A program made the translations under genes and the position numbers. Below the pieces are notes generated by a model. That model did not search any database. It was given only the letters and a program-made list of their open reading frames with translations, and was not told where the DNA came from. From a virus: a stretch of DNA of 64,000 bases. Position 1 is the stretch's first letter. Each line of letters begins with the position of its first letter. The stretch lies in IMG/VR virus record IMGVR_UViG_3300045988_079322; one strand, written 5' to 3'. This document shows, piece by piece, positions 48,561-55,685 of the stretch.

Positions 48561-49022
48561 ATGAGTGTTATTAGTGCTATATATAAAGCTCCAACAATTA
48601 CATAGCTAGTTAATGAAAAATCTGGCATATGTATTGTTGGAATTAATTATAATGGAAAAATCTTTAGCGGACGAGCCAAGTTAGCGGAAAGCGATAAAGA
48701 TTTTTTTTCTGAAAAGGTAGGTAAAACTATCGCTTTATCAAAAGCAAGAATAAATGCTATGCAATATGAAATGAAAAAAACTCGCAAAGAATTACAATAT
48801 AGATATGACTATTATCAAGAGGCAACAAAATATGAGCGATTAAGTCCTGCGGAAGTTGACCCTACTGGAAACTTTTATTATGCAATTGGACGCTGCTCAG
48901 CTCGAATTTCCGCGCTTGAAAAAGCATTAAAAACAGAAGAAACTAACTTAAAAACTTACATTAAAAATCAAACTAAGGCGCTCTCGATAGTTAGAAAATT
49001 TCGTCAGGGCAATAATAATTAA
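48561..49022 (+). CDS. hypothetical protein ~153 aa (1 TAG), paralogue of 26692..27027
   Basis: frame open through TAG at 48603; track ORF 48759..49022 is C-terminal part. Confidence 0.45.
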
Positions 49023-49067
49023 ATCTCCTTCTTTTTTTGTTATATATAAAGAAGAAGGTGGTACATT

Positions 49068-49298
49068 TTGTTATATTTACTTATAGGTATTCTTATTGGA
49101 TCGTTGGGTATTCCAATCATTTTGGACTTGAAAGAGCTTATTTCTGTCTTTGTAGAACTCTTAAAAGCGAGATTAAGTATAAAAATAGTAGAGTGTAATG
49201 CTAAAATAGATAAATTAAATAACTCTATAAATAAGAGTGTAAAAGTTATAGGATTTACTACTACTACATCAGAAGAGGAAGAGGAAAATTATGAATAA
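49068..49298 (+). CDS. small membrane protein 76 aa (TTG start)
   Basis: ORF track. Confidence 0.35.
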   Translation: MLYLLIGILIGSLGIPIILDLKELISVFVELLKARLSIKIVECNAKIDKLNNSINKSVKVIGFTTTTSEEEEENYE

Positions 49299-50547
49299 AG
49301 ATATTCGGTTCTATGATACTTGTTCACTATTGATATGCGGAGAAGGCTTATTCAATAATGATGAAAAATTTATTGTATCATCAATTACTTTTCAGGAATT
49401 GGAAAGAATTAAAACCGCTAACAATAAAGATTCAGATATAAAATATTCAGCTAGATTATTGCTACATTTATTTGAAACGCACCCTGATATGTATGAAGTA
49501 GTAATCCATCAAACAGATTTTGAAGACTATATTAAAGAAATGTGTCTTGACGTAACGGATGATACAAGGATACTGTCTGATGCAATTTGGTATAATAATA
49601 ATAAAAGAGTGGATGAAGTCATCTTTGTAACAAATGATTTAAGCCTAAAGCATATTGCAAATCTATTCTTCGGGTCTGACATGATAGAAAGTATTCCAGA
49701 AGAAACTGATAATTATAGTGGATATAAAGAAATTTCTGCTAGTGATGAGAATCTTACAGAGTTTTATCAAAAACCAGAGCTGAATCATTTTAATCTTCAT
49801 GTTGGAGAATATCTCATTATAAGAGATATGGATGATAAAGTGGTAGATTTGAGAGTATGGACTGGAAACGACCATAGATATCTAAATTATAATGACTTTA
49901 ATTCAAACTGGTTTGGAAAAGTAAAGCCATATCAAAATGATATTTACCAAAAATTACTTTTTGATAGCTTATCTAATAATAAAATTACCTTGATTAAAGG
50001 GCCTGCGGGATCTGGTAAAACATTTATTAGCTTAGCCTATTTAATGTCTAAGCTAGAAAAAGGCGAACTTGATCATATTATTGTATTTTGCAATACCGTT
50101 GCCACAGCCAATAGTGCAAGATTAGGATTTCTACCTGGAACAAGAGATGAAAAACTATTAGACTCTCAAATCGGCAATCTCCTAATATCTAAATTCGGCG
50201 GTAGAACGGGAGTAGAACATCTTATGAGCGAAGAAAAATTAATTTTACTACCAATGTCGGATATTAGAGGATATGATACCAATGGTTCAAGAGCAGGTAT
50301 ATACATTTCTGAAGCTCAGAATTTAGATCGTACACTTATTAAGTTGGCTCTTCAAAGAATTGGAGAGGATTGCATTTGTATCATTGACGGCGATGAAAAA
50401 ACTCAAGTTGATGATATTCATTTTGCTGGCATAAACAATGGAATGAAACGAGTTTCTAAAGTTTATAGAGGACAAGATATATACGGTGAAGTAGAACTCC
50501 GTAATATTTATAGATCTAGAATCGCGCAAATAGCTGAATATATTTGA
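49291..50547 (+). CDS. phoH: PhoH-like ATPase with N-terminal PIN domain
   Basis: Walker A LIKGPAGSGKTF. Confidence 0.7.
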   Translation: MNKDIRFYDTCSLLICGEGLFNNDEKFIVSSITFQELERIKTANNKDSDIKYSARLLLHLFETHPDMYEVVIHQTDFEDYIKEMCLDVTDDTRILSDAIWYNNNKRVDEVIFVTNDLSLKHIANLFFGSDMIESIPEETDNYSGYKEISASDENLTEFYQKPELNHFNLHVGEYLIIRDMDDKVVDLRVWTGNDHRYLNYNDFNSNWFGKVKPYQNDIYQKLLFDSLSNNKITLIKGPAGSGKTFISLAYLMSKLEKGELDHIIVFCNTVATANSARLGFLPGTRDEKLLDSQIGNLLISKFGGRTGVEHLMSEEKLILLPMSDIRGYDTNGSRAGIYISEAQNLDRTLIKLALQRIGEDCICIIDGDEKTQVDDIHFAGINNGMKRVSKVYRGQDIYGEVELRNIYRSRIAQIAEYI

Positions 50548-50590
50548 TTTAAACCCAATCTCTTTAGAGATTGGGTTTTATTATTGAAAG
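50548..50590 (+). terminator. rho-independent terminator
   Basis: aacccaatctc ttta gagattgggtt ttatt. Confidence 0.65.
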
Positions 50591-50600
50591 GAGATAAAGT

Positions 50601-51455
50601 ATGGGATATAGTATCAAAAAACATAGTCTCTATTCTTATGTTCAAATTGTAACAATTCCCTTCACAGACATTGAAAAAATTGACTTTGCCTTATGCAATC
50701 AACCGACGGAAACTCCAGATGCTTATTATAAAAGACAGGCTACTAAACCAGATATTATTACTAATGGAGGTTTCTTTGCCATGAATAATGGCAACACCTG
50801 CTTTAGTTATAAAGACGAAGGAACTGTTATTTAGTCTGATTTTCGTCATGGAGTTGCAATTAGCGGCAATAAAACACTTATATATACAACATTAAAAGAT
50901 TATGAAACCGCTAGAGATTTTATCGCAGCTTATCCTGCATTAATTGTAGATAGCAAAAAAGTAGTTATAACAGATGGAAAAGAATTAGATTATAAAGCCC
51001 GCAGGACTTGTATTGGATGGAATAAAAATAATTATTATATTGTAACCGTAGATTCTCCAGGTCTTGTTTATGCTGCCCTATAGCAAATTTTTCTTGAATT
51101 GAAAGTAGAATATGCTATTAATTTAGATGGAGGCGGATCTACTAGATTACTAATAGATGGGAAAAGAAAAACTTCTCAAATTTATGCAAGATCAGTTGAT
51201 AATGTAATGTGTGTATATTTTAAGAAAGAACAAGAGGTAGTTCTTTACAGAGTTCAAGTAGGAGCATTTCTATCTAAAACCAATGCAGAGAATATGTTAA
51301 AGGAATTGGAAGAGAAAGGATTTAGCGGGTATGTCAAGAAAGTAGGAATTTTTTATAAAGTTCAATTAGGTGCTTTCTCTGTGAAATTAAATGCAGAAAG
51401 ACTAAAAGATAAATTAAAATCTGCTGGATATAGCTCTTTCATTACAAAAAAATAA
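50601..51455 (+). CDS. phosphodiester-glycosidase (NAGPA-like) domain protein with two C-terminal SPOR repeats (2 TAG)
   Basis: INLDGGGSTRL; SPOR-like YRVQVGAF...KVQLGAF; joins 50601..50834 and 51099..51455. Confidence 0.5.
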
Positions 51456-51457
51456 AA

Positions 51458-51937
51458 ATGACTAATGCTCAAATTATTTGGAAATACTTTAAAGGCAAAG
51501 GTTTTAGTGATTGCGGAATTGCCGGTTTAATGGGTAATCTTTATGCCGAAAGTGGTCTTAATTCTATTAACTTATAGAACACCTATGAAAAAAAATTAAA
51601 AATGACCGACGCAGGATATACCTCCGCAGTTGATGATGGAAGGTATAAAAACTTTGTAAAAGATGGAGCGGGATATGGATTGGCTCAATGGACATTTTGG
51701 AGCAGAAAACAAAATTTGCTTTAGTTCTGTCAAAGTCGAGGTAAATCCATTGGAGATTTAAATACTCAATTAGATTTTTTATATTAGGAGTTAATTACAA
51801 GTTTTTCTAGTTTAGTTAAAATTTTGATTTCTGCCACTTCTGTCACAGAAGCCTCTACCGCAGTATTACTCTAGTTTGAAAGACCTTCAGACTAGAGTTT
51901 TTCTATGCAACAAAAGAGGGCTAATTATGGTCAATAG
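51458..51937 (+). CDS. phage tail-lysozyme-like peptidoglycan hydrolase domain (6 TAG); no TAA/TGA before the amidase gene, so possibly fused with 51989..52864
   Basis: IAGLMGNLYAESGL ... GYGLAQWT ... ERPSDQ...YY. Confidence 0.45.
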
Positions 51938-51988
51938 TATTATAATAAATTTGCTAACATTTCAAATGTAATTGAAGGAGGTAATAAA

Positions 51989-52864
51989 ATGAAATATAGC
52001 GATAGCAATAAACCACTTCAATGTATGATGACAAATAGCACTTGCTATAAACAAACACGCACCATGCAAGTTAAAGGAATCTTATGGCATAGTACTGGTG
52101 CAAATAATCCTAATTTAAAAAGATATGTATAGCCAAGCGATAATGATCCTAACTACACCAGTTTAATAAATAAATTAGGAAAAAATACTAGCAAGAATGA
52201 CTGGAATCATATATCTGTTCAAGCTGGATTAAACTGTTGGATTGGTAAATTGGCTGATGGAACAGTAACAACAGTATAGACAATGCCATGGAATTATCGT
52301 CCTTGGGGATGCGGTTCTGGGTCTAAAGGTTCTTGTAATAATGGATGGATTCAGTTTGAAATTTGCGAAGATGGATTAAATGATGCAAATTATTTTAACA
52401 AAATTTATGAAGAGGCTTGTCAAATTACTGCTTATTTATGTAAAATGTATAACATAAATCCATTGGGAACCACTACTTTAAATGGTATCACCGTTCCGAC
52501 TATTTTATGTCATGCTGATAGTCACAAGCTAGGATTAGGATCTAATCATGCAGATGTAAACCATTGGTTTCCAAAATTTGGGAAAAGCATGGAAACCGCA
52601 AGAACAGATGTTTATAATTTAATGTCAAATATCTAGGAGGATGATGAAGATATGACTGACGAGAAATTCGCTGAACTTATGAATACTTGGCTTACTAATA
52701 AAGCTAATGAAAAAGAAACTTGGGGCACCGATAATCTTGAATGGGCTAAAGCGAATGGGATTATGGCTGGAGACAGTGCTGGAAGAATGATGCCAAATAA
52801 ATTCTGCACTAGATTAGAAACTGTAACTATGTTAAGAAGATTGGCTGAAAAGCTAGGACTTTAA
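51989..52864 (+). CDS. N-acetylmuramoyl-L-alanine amidase (Amidase_2/PGRP) endolysin (3 TAG)
   Basis: RBS gaaggaggtaataaa; ILCHADSHKLGLGSNHADVNHWF; track ORFs 52283.. and 52652.. are in-frame parts. Confidence 0.6.
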
Positions 52865-52865
52865 G

Positions 52866-53150
52866 ATGAAAAAGATAGAATTTTCTAAGAAGCTCATAAA
52901 TGATATTCGCTTGCTATTGTGGATTATAACCATATCAGGAATACTTTTAGCATTTATGTGCGTCTTATTGGGTTATTTGGGGACTTTGCCATGGATTAGT
53001 GCTCTTATAGGTTTACCATGGAGTGCTCATGGTATAGTTTGCTCCTTCTATTTAACAATGGCTAAATCAGATCATAAAAAGGGTGGAATAACCTACGATT
53101 TAGCTTTAAAAGAAATTGAATCTAATTCCGCATCTACATATACTGTTTAG
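52866..53150 (+). CDS. holin candidate (2-TM small membrane protein)
   Basis: adjacent to endolysin; two hydrophobic helices. Confidence 0.4.
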   Translation: MKKIEFSKKLINDIRLLLWIITISGILLAFMCVLLGYLGTLPWISALIGLPWSAHGIVCSFYLTMAKSDHKKGGITYDLALKEIESNSASTYTV

Positions 53151-53211
53151 GCAGAAGATTTTTCGGCATCTAATGATATTCCTATTGATCTCGATGGACC
53201 TATTTAATATA

Positions 53212-53252
53212 AAGGCTTAATGGGTATTTATCCCATTAAGCCTTTATTTGTT
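53212..53252 (+). terminator. rho-independent terminator
   Basis: aaaggcttaatggg tattt atcccattaagccttt atttgtttg. Confidence 0.65.
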
Positions 53253-53333
53253 TGTAGCTTGATTTTTCTTAAAATATATGATATTATATATTCAGAAAAT
53301 GAAAAGAATTAAAATAAAGGAGATTTATGTCTT

Positions 53334-53795
53334 ATGACTATATATACCGATGGTTCCTGCCTAGGTAATCCTGGGCCAGGAGGTTTTGGAGTTATTGTAG
53401 TTGATAATGATGTCGTTATAGATGCTTACTCAGAACGCGAACCACGAACTACAAACAATAGAGAGGAAATGAAAGCTATTATATACGCGCTAGAACACTA
53501 TGGTGCAAAAGAGGGAGATTTCTTTGTCCCAATAGTCTATAGCGATTCTTCTTATTGTGTAAATAGTTTCAATTCATGGATAAATAGCTGGAAAGCAAAT
53601 GGATGGGTGCGCGCAGGCGGAAAGAAACTTGAAAATCTTGATTTAATTAAAATTTATGATATGCTAAGACAAGATTACAAGATTGATCTAAGAAAAATTA
53701 AAGGTCATGATGGTGAGCTTTATAATGAACTAGCCGACGCGCTAGCTACTGAAAGAATGACTAAAGAAGAAATTTTAAGAGAGTATGGTGAATAA
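53334..53795 (+). CDS. rnhA: ribonuclease HI
   Basis: IYTDGSCLGNPGPGG ... ELADALA. Confidence 0.75.
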   Translation: MTIYTDGSCLGNPGPGGFGVIVVDNDVVIDAYSEREPRTTNNREEMKAIIYALEHYGAKEGDFFVPIVYSDSSYCVNSFNSWINSWKANGWVRAGGKKLENLDLIKIYDMLRQDYKIDLRKIKGHDGELYNELADALATERMTKEEILREYGE

Positions 53796-55685
53796 ATGGC
53801 TGGAAAATTATATGATGAAAAAAGTATTGAATCTCTTTCTCCTCTTGAATTTACTCGTTTAAGACCCGGAGTTTATTGCGGAGACACATCTACTTCCACG
53901 CAGTTGGTCGTAGAGATTGTTTCTAATGCCGTTGATGAATTTAGATTAGGTCATGGAAATTTAATCACAGTAGAAATCCTTGGGGCAAGAGTTACAGTTA
54001 GCGATCAGGGACAAGGATTCATTCCAAATTCTTTTAGAGAAGATGGAAAGACAATTCTTGAAGCTGCTTTCAGTGTCTTAAATACAAGCGGAAAATATAG
54101 AGAAGATGGAACTTATGAAGGTACTTCTTTAGGTAGCTTTGGTATAGGTAGTAAACTCGCTACTTATCTCAGTCACGAATTAATTGTTACAACATATAGA
54201 GATGGACAGGGAGAGCGAATCACTTTTAATGAGGGAGTTTTCGCAGATAGAGATTCTACTGAGGTTGATAAAAATATTCATGGAACTTCTGTATTCTGGA
54301 GAGCAAGCGAGGAGTTTTTCACTGATCCTCGTCCAGATGTAAAGGCTCTAACTGAACTGTTTAAAACTATTGTATGTCTCTGTCCGGGTTTAACTATCAA
54401 GCTCGATAACAACGGAGAAAAAACAGAATTCTTCTCAAAGAATGGTCTAATGGATTTACTAGACGAGGCCGTTAAAGGAAAAGAGATCTTAAAGAATCGT
54501 CTATCAATTAATTTTTCCGAAGCTAAAAATAAGTTGGATTTAGCTCTAACTTATACAAATAATTATTCTTCTACCATTGTTCCTTATGTTAATACTGGTT
54601 TAACAGAAGCAGGTCCACATATTACGCAAATTAAAACCCTTTTAACAAGAGAAATGAATAAGTTTTTCCGTGAAAAAGGGTGGCTAAAAGAAAAAGACGA
54701 TAATCTTACCGGCGAAGACTGTCAAGAGGGAATGTATCTCGTCTTTAATATTACCGCTCCCAATGTGGCCTATGACGCGCAGGTTAAGTCAAGAATCACA
54801 AAACTTGATATGAAACCATTTACTCAAGCAATAGCAGAGGAATTGCAATATTGGTTTGCAGCAAACGAAAAAGATATAAAAGGAATCGCGGACAAGGCGC
54901 TTAATGCGCGTAAAGCTAGAGAAGCAGCCAGAAAAGCTAGAGAAGCAGCCAGAGGATTAAAGCCTAAAAAAGAAAATGGACTAAAGGCAAAAATGCAAAT
55001 TAGTAATAAATTTATTGATTGCATAAACAAAAATCCCAAAGAGCGAAATCTACTTCTCGTAGAGGGTTTGTCTGCTGGCGCTTCTGCCGTGGAAGCCCGC
55101 AATCCAAAAACAGACTGTATTTATATGTTAAGAGGTAAAATTATTTCTCCCTTAAAAACTGCCATAGAGAAGATTTTATCTAACCAAGAAATGTCTGATA
55201 TAGTTAGAGTTATAGGCGGCGGATTTGGAACTTCTTTTGATGTATCAAAGATAAATTTTGATAAAGTAGTTATTACTGCTGATGCTGATAGCGATGGGGC
55301 AGATATTGAGCTAATGCTTATTACATTCTTCTTTACTTATATGCGTCCATTGGTAGAGGCGGGTAAGCTATATCGAGCTGTAACTCCCCTATATATTGTT
55401 CGCCAAAGAGGAAACGAATATTACTGTTACTCTGACGATGAGCTAGAAGAGTGGAAAAAAAGTCATAGTGGCTCTTATGATATTTTAAGAGCAAAGGGAC
55501 TCGGAGAATTAAATCCAGAAGATTTGCAGAAAGTTTGCTTCATGAATGAAAGATATAAAAGAATCACTATCTCTGATGCAGAAGAGGCTACAAAGCTATT
55601 AAATGTCCTTATGGGTAGTGCAGTTGAACCTAGAAAGCAATATATTTATGACAATGCCAATGAGCTTGGATTTAATTTTGATTAA
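53796..55685 (+). CDS. type II DNA topoisomerase ATPase/Toprim subunit (GyrB/ParE or T4 gp39-like)
   Basis: GHKL ATPase N-term; Toprim LLVEGLSAG; 629 aa. Confidence 0.8.
   Translation: MAGKLYDEKSIESLSPLEFTRLRPGVYCGDTSTSTQLVVEIVSNAVDEFRLGHGNLITVEILGARVTVSDQGQGFIPNSFREDGKTILEAAFSVLNTSGKYREDGTYEGTSLGSFGIGSKLATYLSHELIVTTYRDGQGERITFNEGVFADRDSTEVDKNIHGTSVFWRASEEFFTDPRPDVKALTELFKTIVCLCPGLTIKLDNNGEKTEFFSKNGLMDLLDEAVKGKEILKNRLSINFSEAKNKLDLALTYTNNYSSTIVPYVNTGLTEAGPHITQIKTLLTREMNKFFREKGWLKEKDDNLTGEDCQEGMYLVFNITAPNVAYDAQVKSRITKLDMKPFTQAIAEELQYWFAANEKDIKGIADKALNARKAREAARKAREAARGLKPKKENGLKAKMQISNKFIDCINKNPKERNLLLVEGLSAGASAVEARNPKTDCIYMLRGKIISPLKTAIEKILSNQEMSDIVRVIGGGFGTSFDVSKINFDKVVITADADSDGADIELMLITFFFTYMRPLVEAGKLYRAVTPLYIVRQRGNEYYCYSDDELEEWKKSHSGSYDILRAKGLGELNPEDLQKVCFMNERYKRITISDAEEATKLLNVLMGSAVEPRKQYIYDNANELGFNFD

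Follow-up and report, generated by a model that had tools for sequence, protein, structure and literature searches.

Nine in-frame TAG codons and candidate internal translation starts in a three-module endolysin gene of a TAG-recoded phage

The 64,000-nucleotide viral window studied here (the whole stretch of DNA that was analysed) very probably carries one late gene of a code 15 phage that encodes a 468-aa endolysin of three modules, reads nine UAG codons as sense and contains putative internal translation starts (Table 1). An earlier note, made from the letters alone, had described lysozyme-like and amidase lysin domains in a single frame separated only by TAG codons. It raised the possibility that some of these codons act as stops and divide the frame into genes. 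Comparison with relatives, including TAG-free homologues from standard-code genomes, supports one fused gene.

Table 1. Features of the endolysin gene and its surroundings (positions in the window)
Feature	Position	Strand	Details
Amber suppressor tRNA, CUA anticodon	27798..27872	+	ARAGORN and Rfam
Terminator-like hairpin, 5' of three-gene lysis cassette	50551..50578	+	
NAGPA (phosphodiester glycosidase) and SPOR gene	50601..51455	+	2 TAGs; TAA ends 2 nt before endolysin ATG
Endolysin ORF	51458..52864	+	468 codons and TAA; 9 in-frame TAG, predicted Gln; full-length homologues, some TAG-free in standard-code genomes
Module A, Phage_lysozyme2 muramidase/transglycosylase-like and linker, aa 1-177	51458..51988	+	PF18013; phrog_20388 endolysin
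Candidate internal start 1 (Type I-like)	51974..51991	+	GAAGGAGGT at 51974-51982, 7-nt spacer, ATG 51989 (Met178)
Module B, Amidase_2/PGRP-type N-acetylmuramoyl-L-alanine amidase, aa 178-392	51989..52633	+	PF01510; PlyL-like fold
Candidate internal start 2 (Type II-like)	52634..52654	+	TAG codon 393 overlaps GGAGG 52636-52640; 11-nt spacer; ATG 52652 (Met399)
Module C, one SLH-type wall-binding repeat, aa 399-468	52652..52861	+	Pfam SLH, borderline; no TAG
113-aa membrane protein, putative holin	52866..53207	+	Hydrophobic segments; 1 TAG; begins 1 nt past endolysin TAA
Terminator-like hairpin closing lysis cassette	53209..53247	+	16-bp stem and T-run

The earlier note was right that the frame opening at ATG 51458 contains neither TAA nor TGA before the TAA at 52862-52864. 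It had counted six TAGs, and our recount gives nine, at 51575, 51722, 51785, 51872, 51893, 51935, 52130, 52277, and 52634. TAA and TGA together make up about 5% of the triplets in the window, and by our own arithmetic a run of 468 codons without either has a chance of about 1e-11, so the frame does not reflect chance. It is likewise uninterrupted in independent assemblies (L004, 98%; L084, 94%; L085, 87%; L086 and L087, 78-79%), which argues against an assembly artefact. A TAA or TGA inside the interval in an error-free assembly had been named as a finding that would speak against a single gene. We looked for one in at least five assemblies and found the frame intact.

What do the nine TAGs encode? 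Six of them lie opposite conserved, predominantly Q positions in an alignment with TAG-free homologues, and Q is the commonest residue opposite any TAG. In the protein of Dulem virus 33, Q stands exactly opposite TAG 52130, 52277, and 52634. TAG is exchanged with CAA or CAG at many sites among relatives of 79-94% identity, and TAG positions vary among the recoded relatives. Public gene callers already translate the TAGs as Q and list the endolysin at 468-469 aa. Moreover, the phage encodes a tRNA(CUA) whose D and anticodon arms resemble those of the phage tRNA-Gln(UUG) and which would decode UAG. Comparison with relatives shows that all nine UAGs are sense codons, with TAA 52862 as the sole terminator; judged from the alignment, TAG is glutamine in this gene, and the Gln identity of the suppressor is read from the same source. 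For Gln at UAG, proteomics has been carried out for crAss-like phages (PMC9523058). Peptides that would carry Q at TAG sites here include YVQPSDNDPNYTSLINK and the QEDDEDMTDEK region.

The endolysin is built of three modules: Phage_lysozyme2, Amidase_2, and one SLH repeat. The lysozyme-like and amidase domains of the earlier note therefore stand, while its count of two modules does not, as Pfam adds the SLH repeat as a third. We used the AlphaFold model of P0002, a 99%-identical proxy for the TAG-to-Q product, as the structure; its mean pLDDT is 78.7, and the only segments below 50 are residues 168-176 and 393-398. Phage_lysozyme2 matches aa 3-165 at 121.5 bits (cut-off 28.2; profile positions 2-140 of 140), and the fold of module A resembles the N-terminal domain of phi29 gp13 (3csr, TMt 0.67, Foldseek). 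E31 of an AESG motif is invariant and is a candidate for the conserved catalytic Glu of the lysozyme-like fold. Amidase_2 matches aa 202-353 at 45 bits (cut-off 26), and module B matches PlyL (1yb0) with TMt 0.76 and E = 4e-6 (Foldseek). Four residues that are candidates for the zinc site, H211, H352, H364, and D366, do not vary among 36 sequences. The SLH match (PF00395, aa 422-454) straddles its cut-off of 20.8, with 23.7 bits for the 70-aa module alone and 19.8 in the full protein, and PF00395 is precomputed for many homologues. In the canonical SLH arrangement, three tandem repeats form one binding unit. The endolysin has one repeat only, and a single repeat would need oligomerisation to function. 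We propose that the Phage_lysozyme2 module would hydrolyse glycan strands, the zinc-dependent amidase would cut the MurNAc-L-Ala bond, and the SLH repeat would anchor the enzyme to the wall.

Among the 80 IMG/VR loci, modules A and B share one frame and one ORF wherever both occur, a set that takes in loci with an identical code 11/code 15 gene map or with TAG-ending neighbours. We also compared standard-code lysins, as the earlier note had proposed, and found the same architecture as a single ORF. TAG-free homologues of this kind occur in standard-code phages and bacterial genomes (e.g. FP_Lagaffe, L017, L036, L041, L088, and L092). The fused ORFs in bacterial genomes (prophages) have the same amidase module in L088 and L092 and a different amidase family in the middle in L142 and L153. 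Among the matches listed, all 120 database proteins of 442-487 aa share the architecture. The single fused product of ~468 aa that had been predicted for TAG=Gln decoding thus has TAG-free counterparts that are each one ORF. Across its junctions the fusion would read ...NVIEGGNK-MKYSD... and ...NIQEDDEDMTDEK..., and FANISNVIEGGNKMK is an example of a junction-spanning peptide.

The strong in-frame RBS that had been noticed before ATG 51989 holds up on re-examination. A second in-frame GGAGG with ATG 52652, just before the SLH repeat, had been overlooked. The predicted anti-SD duplex energies are -13.4 kcal/mol for ATG 51989 and -10.2 kcal/mol for ATG 52652, whereas 409 other internal ATGs have a median of -2.2. 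At the A/B junction, 32/32 distinct fused homologues, TAG-free ones included, carry an SD signal whose strength falls in the top decile. The same is true of the B/C junction in 17/17 distinct A-B-C homologues in which the C-module match starts at Met399 (-9.3 to -11.6 kcal/mol). Mann-Whitney tests of SD strength, made on related sequences, give p = 2e-20 (A/B) and p = 3e-12 (B/C). At 11 nt, the B/C spacer is long for an SD; several relatives have 8 nt there. Met178 is invariant and Met399 almost invariant, both ATGs follow the two low-pLDDT segments, and stand-alone amidase homologues begin at the same Met-Lys as ATG 51989. The RNA surrounding the first internal SD folds no more stably than shuffled sequence (z = -0.02). 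Because the SD and ATG are common to all fused homologues and lie in disordered linkers, they resemble the iTSS of endolysins rather than gene starts. We infer from this conservation that ATGs 51989 and 52652 are internal translation starts, which would add a 291-aa amidase-SLH isoform and a free 70-aa SLH module to the full-length enzyme.

Could the TAGs nonetheless mark gene ends? Leaky UAG boundaries at 51935 and 52634 would yield separate lysozyme, amidase, and SLH proteins in a ratio set by suppression efficiency. These two TAGs lie 54 nt and 18 nt 5' of the internal ATGs, the second overlaps an SD, and full suppression is, on general knowledge, improbable in a standard-code host. However, TAG 51935..51937 is codon 160, which in the model falls inside helix 148-169 that ends module A, and the Pfam match extends to residue 165. 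This codon is variously R, K, N, T, E, or Q in homologues (TAG in L084 and L085), and codon 393 is CAG (Q) in Dulem virus 33 and mostly GAG (E) in others; L086 has Glu at both codons; at both positions TAG is kept only in relatives down to ~87% identity. The suggestion that a stop at 51935 would give two proteins is thus at odds with both the helix and the lack of conservation. Most of the remaining TAGs (six) sit at conserved Gln in domain cores, so termination there would truncate the domains rather than separate them and would give only inactive fragments. The homologues without TAG are fused, and because they carry the RBS and ATG at the same junction, this signal marks no separate gene. 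With junction TAGs that are not conserved and loci in which both domains are always fused, the notion that TAG delimits genes here is not supported, and we judge leaky boundaries very improbable. Still less credence belongs to a pseudogene or assembly artefact, i.e. a standard-code cluster broken by stops. Code 11 does split the frame into ten pieces, but the comparative data refute this explanation: the frame is kept in at least five independent assemblies, its in-frame stops are all TAG and mostly at conserved Gln, a suppressor tRNA is encoded, and whole-length protein identity to relatives is high.

A more serious alternative accepts one fused gene and holds that the internal SDs and ATGs are non-functional fossils of module shuffling or recombination joints, with only the full-length enzyme made. 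The amidase carries its SD-ATG wherever it is placed, whether as the first domain, after CHAP, or after lysozyme. The GG..M and EEDEDM junction motifs stay the same where different amidase families have been swapped in between them (L142, L145, L153), and a gene-fusion origin of Type I iTSS has been discussed (PMC12203907). Fossils would nevertheless have to account for an SD retained across lineages at only 50-65% identity, in differing codon registers and by means of the rare codons GGG and GAG, amid linker residues that drift (EGG, KEE, TGE, KGD). Moreover, experiments on other endolysins have demonstrated that comparable sites serve as internal starts (PMC9430671; PMC12203907). We therefore regard the fossil explanation as plausible, though on balance we doubt it.

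If both internal starts of the fused gene were used, three nested products could arise from a Type I-like and a Type II-like start, ordered by rising tRNA(CUA) and followed by SLH co-assembly. The full-length enzyme would need nine amber suppressions, the amidase-SLH isoform three, and the SLH module none. As tRNA(CUA) rises, wall binding would come first, the amidase next, and the bifunctional enzyme last, and the free single-repeat SLH would join the enzyme to make a multi-repeat binding unit. We consider this full scheme unlikely. It would require both a Type I and a Type II iTSS in our gene, a combination of which we found no description in the literature.

How does this arrangement compare with known systems? 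The endolysin of the Faecalibacterium phage FP_Lagaffe (AUV56383.1, phrog_20388) also has an N-terminal Phage_lysozyme2 fused to an amidase in one ORF. It is 58% identical over module A (51% in a longer HSP) and carries AAGGAGGT-N6-ATG at the junction that corresponds to our ATG 51989. However, FP_Lagaffe is a cultured standard-code phage whose gene is TAG-free, its amidase belongs to another family, and its C-terminus is SPOR and SH3-like rather than SLH. The 'PGRP protein' of Dulem virus 33 (XCD07637.1) is collinear with our amidase-SLH portion (aa 187-467, 45% identity). Its Met start lies just past the position of ATG 51989 (its residue 10 is our aa 187), and it has an EDDDM linker. Unlike ours, it lacks both a lysozyme module and in-frame TAGs, and its locus looks standard-code; it matches the predicted short isoform.

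Among endolysins with internal starts, Ply2638A of staphylococcal phage phi2638A (Type I iTSS) has the same order of EAD, Amidase_2, and CBD, and an in-frame start between its catalytic domains gives an amidase-CBD short isoform in addition to the full-length enzyme (PMC12203907). It differs in its M23 peptidase as the first domain, SH3b CBD, TTG start, and experimental isoforms, whereas ours are predicted. CTP1L, CD27L, Lys170, and LysIME-EF1 (Type II iTSS) resemble our gene in that an in-frame SD and ATG lie in the linker that precedes the wall-binding domain, and additional free copies of their CBD associate with the full-length enzyme (PMC4777826, PMC4110038, PMC7098653, PMC9430671). These endolysins have other CBD folds and one catalytic domain, and our second start is read from sequence.

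The endolysin sits in a tight cassette between the NAGPA-SPOR gene and the putative holin, with terminator-like hairpins on both sides. Its own ATG has no SD. The NAGPA-SPOR gene is present in L004, L084, and L085 and absent in L086, and the putative holin lies directly 3' of the endolysin in most matching loci. The 113-aa membrane protein has no Pfam or PHROG match; since the endolysin has no signal peptide, it presumably reaches the wall by way of this protein. A hairpin at 51868-51898 (-19.8 kcal/mol, z = -5.5) is followed by a T-run and holds TAG 51872 and TAG 51893 in opposite arms. We weighed a role for it in read-through or attenuation but rejected it as a conserved feature, because L084, at 94% identity, has already lost it and no other relative has it. 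Promoter-like matches in 49000-54000 number 28 against a shuffle expectation of 25.6, and we therefore claim no internal promoter.

TAG is enriched in the endolysin, where it accounts for 9/23 Gln codons vs 40/430 (~9%) across the remaining 51 genes (Fisher p = 2.5e-4). This enrichment fits a published proposal in which recoding gates lysis genes and acts as a lock against premature lysis (doi 10.1101/2021.08.26.457843). Under that model, host RF1 would halt ribosomes at codon 40 until the suppressor tRNA builds up, and the nine ambers would act as a lock against too-early lysis. Six TAGs fall in module A (codons 40, 89, 110, 139, 146, and 160), two in module B (codons 225 and 274, both opposite Q in Dulem virus 33), one in the linker, and none in module C. 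We rejected selection for a TAG gradient from A to C: by our own count, module C lacks Gln altogether and TAG makes up similar fractions in A and B, so the gradient is no evidence of selection.

The phage resembles other TAG-recoded gut phages (doi 10.1101/2021.08.26.457843; PMC10607447) in its tRNA(CUA), the recoding of only some genes, and TAG-rich lysis genes. Its large tRNA array and Clostridia-type host signal also resemble those of Phassvirus-like phages (PMC10607447). A nucleotide search of the GenBank phage collection for close relatives gave short unrelated matches only, and the best protein matches of the largest neighbouring gene among GenBank phages are uncultured megaphages at 38% identity. 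For want of a close GenBank phage relative, we do not place the phage in a named clade. Related contigs are ~148 kb, and a cluster look-up gave no database names. The host is probably a member of Oscillospiraceae or related Clostridia.

Since the apparent gene boundaries are predicted internal RBSs that standard-code relatives keep as well, the locus is ordinary for such phages. In partly recoded phages, runs of domains parted only by TAG are best taken as single genes, and standard-code homologues settle the matter quickly. The endolysin is another lysis gene rich in amber codons and backs the published idea that recoding delays lysis. A modest new angle is the conservation of RBSs in both linkers of a widespread family of gut-phage endolysins. 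If both starts are used, this family would be a natural system for multi-isoform endolysins, and its recoded members could show how suppression efficiency affects isoform ratios. If true, this would be helpful for engineering endolysins against Oscillospiraceae and other Clostridia.

The lysozyme-like and amidase domains lie in a single ORF that runs from ATG 51458 to TAA 52862-52864, 468 codons without TAA or TGA, as the earlier note had described. About 5% of the window's triplets are TAA or TGA, and by our own arithmetic the chance probability of such a run is about 1e-11. We counted nine in-frame TAG codons rather than the six previously reported. Public gene calls cover the whole length of the ORFs of three related contigs. 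Moreover, more than 100 full-length homologues of 442-487 aa are on record in the protein database, some of them 99%-identical entries in which the TAGs already appear as Q.

TAG in this gene is decoded as sense, consistent with Gln. Alignment of the window ORF to 31 distinct homologous ORFs places six of the nine TAGs (codons 40, 110, 139, 146, 225, and 274) at positions where Q predominates and the remaining three (codons 89, 160, and 393) at variable positions. In relatives whose proteins are 94%, 87%, and 79% identical, TAG is exchanged with CAA or CAG at many sites (including 77, 86, 199, 204, 225, 255, 274, 299, and 322), which is how synonymous codons behave. Dulem virus 33, whose locus looks standard-code, has no TAG in the gene and encodes Q opposite TAG 52130, 52277, and 52634.

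Is this one gene or several? The earlier note had considered a fusion as well as two separate proteins and had proposed a comparison with lysins of standard-code phages. That comparison supports a single gene; indeed, the question is settled because relatives without TAG in the gene carry the modules fused. The cultured Faecalibacterium phage FP_Lagaffe, which is annotated with the standard code, encodes a 527-aa endolysin in which the lysozyme2 module is fused to an amidase. The two modules share frame and ORF in every locus having both, in either order (80 IMG/VR loci), and many of these fused ORFs contain zero TAG. At the loci of TAG-free fused ORFs, the gene maps under the standard code (code 11) and under code 15, which reads TAG as Gln, are identical, or neighboring genes end in TAG. 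Cultured or complete bacterial genomes also carry TAG-free fused ORFs, with the same amidase module in "Oscillospiraceae bacterium 50-58" (locus L088) and an amidase of another family at the middle position in Clostridiales bacterium CCNA10 (AP018533.1) and Hominicoprocola fusiformis.

It had also been suggested that TAG might act as a boundary or tunable stop, perhaps at 51935. This codon (160) lies inside the last lysozyme helix of the structural model (H148-169) and within the Pfam lysozyme match, in which the full profile is covered up to residue 165. At this position homologues carry R, K, N, T, E, or Q; the codon is TAG in the 94%- and 87%-identical relatives (L084 and L085) and Glu in the 79%-identical one (L086). 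At codon 393 (TAG 52634), Dulem virus 33 has CAG, and most of the other relatives compared have GAG. Since TAG is not conserved at either junction-proximal codon, nothing indicates a delimiting role, and with TAG-free homologues fused, the suggestion is not supported.

The description of a two-domain endolysin was correct as to fusion but not as to domain count, because a third, C-terminal module (SLH-type, with a borderline Pfam score) had been overlooked. The architecture is three modules. The ORF matches PHROG endolysin families, and an AlphaFold model built on a 99%-identical proxy protein has three folded modules (mean pLDDT 78.7), with pLDDT below 50 only at residues 168-176 and 393-398, the linkers directly before Met178 and Met399.

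Features of the endolysin locus and of the wider window (aa, residues of the endolysin; SD energies are duplex energies with the anti-SD sequence)
Feature	Position	Strand	Details
tmRNA	16370-16685	+	in tRNA array; tag peptide DNDYFENYLAA
tRNA-Gln(UUG)	18900-18973		flanks ROOL RNA
ROOL RNA, full-length	18994-19589	+	inside tRNA array; Rfam RF03087, 350 bits
tRNA-Gln(CUG)	19609-19683		flanks ROOL RNA
Rfam tRNA match	19856-19974	+	119 nt; missed by ARAGORN
Rfam tRNA match	20249-20333	+	missed by ARAGORN
tRNA(CUA)	27798-27872		D and anticodon arms resemble the phage's own tRNA-Gln(UUG)
Cys-rich protein gene	38998-39870	+	290 aa; 6 TAGs; no Pfam match
Terminator-like hairpins	50551-50578 and 53209-53247		flank the three-gene cassette
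NAGPA (phosphodiester glycosidase) + SPOR gene	50601-51455	+	upstream of endolysin
In-frame TAGs of endolysin	51575, 51722, 51785, 51872, 51893, 51935, 52130, 52277, 52634		
Phage_lysozyme2	aa 3-165		Pfam 121.5 bits; structural match phi29 gp13 lysozyme-like domain, 3csr, TMt 0.67
Hairpin inside lysozyme module	51868-51898	+	13 bp, then T-run; -19.8 kcal/mol, z = -5.5
SD of lysozyme-amidase junction	51974-51982		GAAGGAGGT; spacer 7 nt
Lysozyme-amidase junction ATG (Met178)	51989		SD -13.4 kcal/mol; homologue mean -11.4 (32 distinct ORFs)
Amidase_2	aa 202-353		Pfam 45 bits; structural match PlyL 1yb0, TMt 0.76
GGAGG of amidase-SLH junction	52636-52640		overlaps TAG 52634
Amidase-SLH junction ATG (Met399)	52652		SD -10.2 kcal/mol; homologue mean -11.3 (17 distinct ORFs)
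SLH	aa 422-454		Pfam 23.7 bits scanned alone, 19.8 bits in full protein; structural match none
113-aa membrane protein gene	52866-53207	+	starts 1 nt after endolysin TAA
GIY-YIG protein gene	60070-60981	+	303 aa; C-terminal nuclease domain; 11 TAGs

The strong ribosome-binding site and in-frame ATG reported for the amidase were confirmed, and a second in-frame GGAGG, missing from the earlier note, precedes the ATG of the SLH module. Judged from the aligned homologues, SD and ATG are conserved in both linkers. An SD-like motif and in-frame ATG stand at the amidase start in every fused lysozyme-amidase ORF, TAG-free ones included, and in FP_Lagaffe this junction carries AAGGAGGT-N6-ATG. Stand-alone amidase genes begin exactly at the junction Met-Lys. 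When SD strength was scored against 409 other internal in-frame ATGs (median -2.2 kcal/mol), the strongest decile included all sites of both junctions, although the sequences are phylogenetically related and p-values overstate their independence. Among 36 homologues Met178 is invariant and Met399 nearly so. The SD is retained while linker residues vary (EGG, KEE, TGE, TGG, KGG, RGD, KGD), so that different codon registers and otherwise rare GGG and GAG codons are used.

This pattern is the signature of the documented in-frame internal translation start sites of Gram-positive phage endolysins, and we infer that the sites are used here. About half of Gram-positive phage endolysin genes were predicted in a screen to hold internal starts (PMC9430671); Type I starts are found between two catalytic domains (for example, in Ply2638A) and Type II starts ahead of the binding domain (for example, in CTP1L, Lys170, and LysIME-EF1; PMC12203907). 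The main rival explanation is that the junction signals are relics of modular shuffling. In its favor, unrelated amidase families are found between the same GG..M and EEDEDM motifs, as in three bacterial genome loci (L142, L145, and L153), so the conserved linkers may also serve as joints for recombination. Modules around the lysozyme2 and amidase domains are heavily shuffled in these three loci and in six IMG/VR loci (L026, L027, L030, L045, L053, and L079), with Peptidase_M15-like, CHAP-like, SH3, and SPOR modules and reversed amidase-lysozyme order.

The endolysin ATG lacks an SD and lies 2 nt past the TAA of the NAGPA+SPOR gene, to which the endolysin is translationally coupled in the window lineage. 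L086 lacks the NAGPA+SPOR gene, and its endolysin is preceded by a GGAGG of its own that follows a terminator hairpin. The 113-aa membrane protein, directly 3' of the endolysin in most matching loci, is a putative holin; it has no family match in Pfam or PHROG and may therefore represent an undescribed holin family. TAG 51872 and TAG 51893 lie in opposite arms of the hairpin inside the lysozyme module, which is probably fortuitous because it is lost in L084.

TAG is enriched in the endolysin gene, where it makes up 9/23 Gln codons; the remaining 51 genes together have 40/430 (odds ratio 6.3, p = 2.5e-4). In the three-gene cassette it accounts for 12/34 Gln codons (p = 6e-5). In recoded phages, in-frame stops have been observed to be concentrated in structural and lysis genes, which in the published model are translated only after a code switch (doi 10.1101/2021.08.26.457843); the enrichment found here fits that model. 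Just 17 of the 52 window genes of at least 100 aa contain in-frame TAG; the credible genes lie almost without exception on the + strand and use TAA or TGA as their stop, which indicates a partly recoded, code-15-type phage. Besides the endolysin, the GIY-YIG and Cys-rich protein genes are the most TAG-dense, so heavy recoding is not confined to lysis genes.

The window holds 30 tRNA genes, a tmRNA, which is notable given stop-codon reassignment, and a tRNA with anticodon CUA. The 119-nt Rfam tRNA match may contain an intron. Related contigs are about 148 kb. Matches in bacterial genomes, among them a contig of 148,971 bp assigned to the bin of an Oscillospiraceae MAG, are overwhelmingly from Oscillospiraceae, Acutalibacteraceae, Lachnospiraceae, and other Clostridia, and therefore point to a host of that kind. 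TAG-recoded, tRNA-rich gut phages with Clostridia hosts, a comparable group, have been described (PMC10607447).

How might such a gene be expressed? We propose that the phage tRNA(CUA) would supply UAG decoding. Before it accumulates, host RF1 would halt translation at codon 40, and ribosomes starting at 51989 would stop at codon 225, so that no active lysin would be made early. The putative holin would let the signal-less endolysin reach the wall. Internal initiation would add an amidase-SLH isoform (291 aa, 3 TAGs) and a free SLH module (70 aa, 0 TAG). We speculate, from general SLH and SPOR biology, that single SLH repeats oligomerize, free modules making up the rest of a multi-repeat binding unit, and that the upstream enzyme uses its SPOR domain to follow amidase-denuded glycan.

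Recoded lysis genes, endolysin internal starts, and modular gut-phage endolysins, including Phage_lysozyme2 and Amidase_2 combinations (PMC13284279), are already described, and the family is already public as single proteins. What interest remains lies in the possibility that one gene carries two conserved internal starts, and in their interplay with amber suppression.
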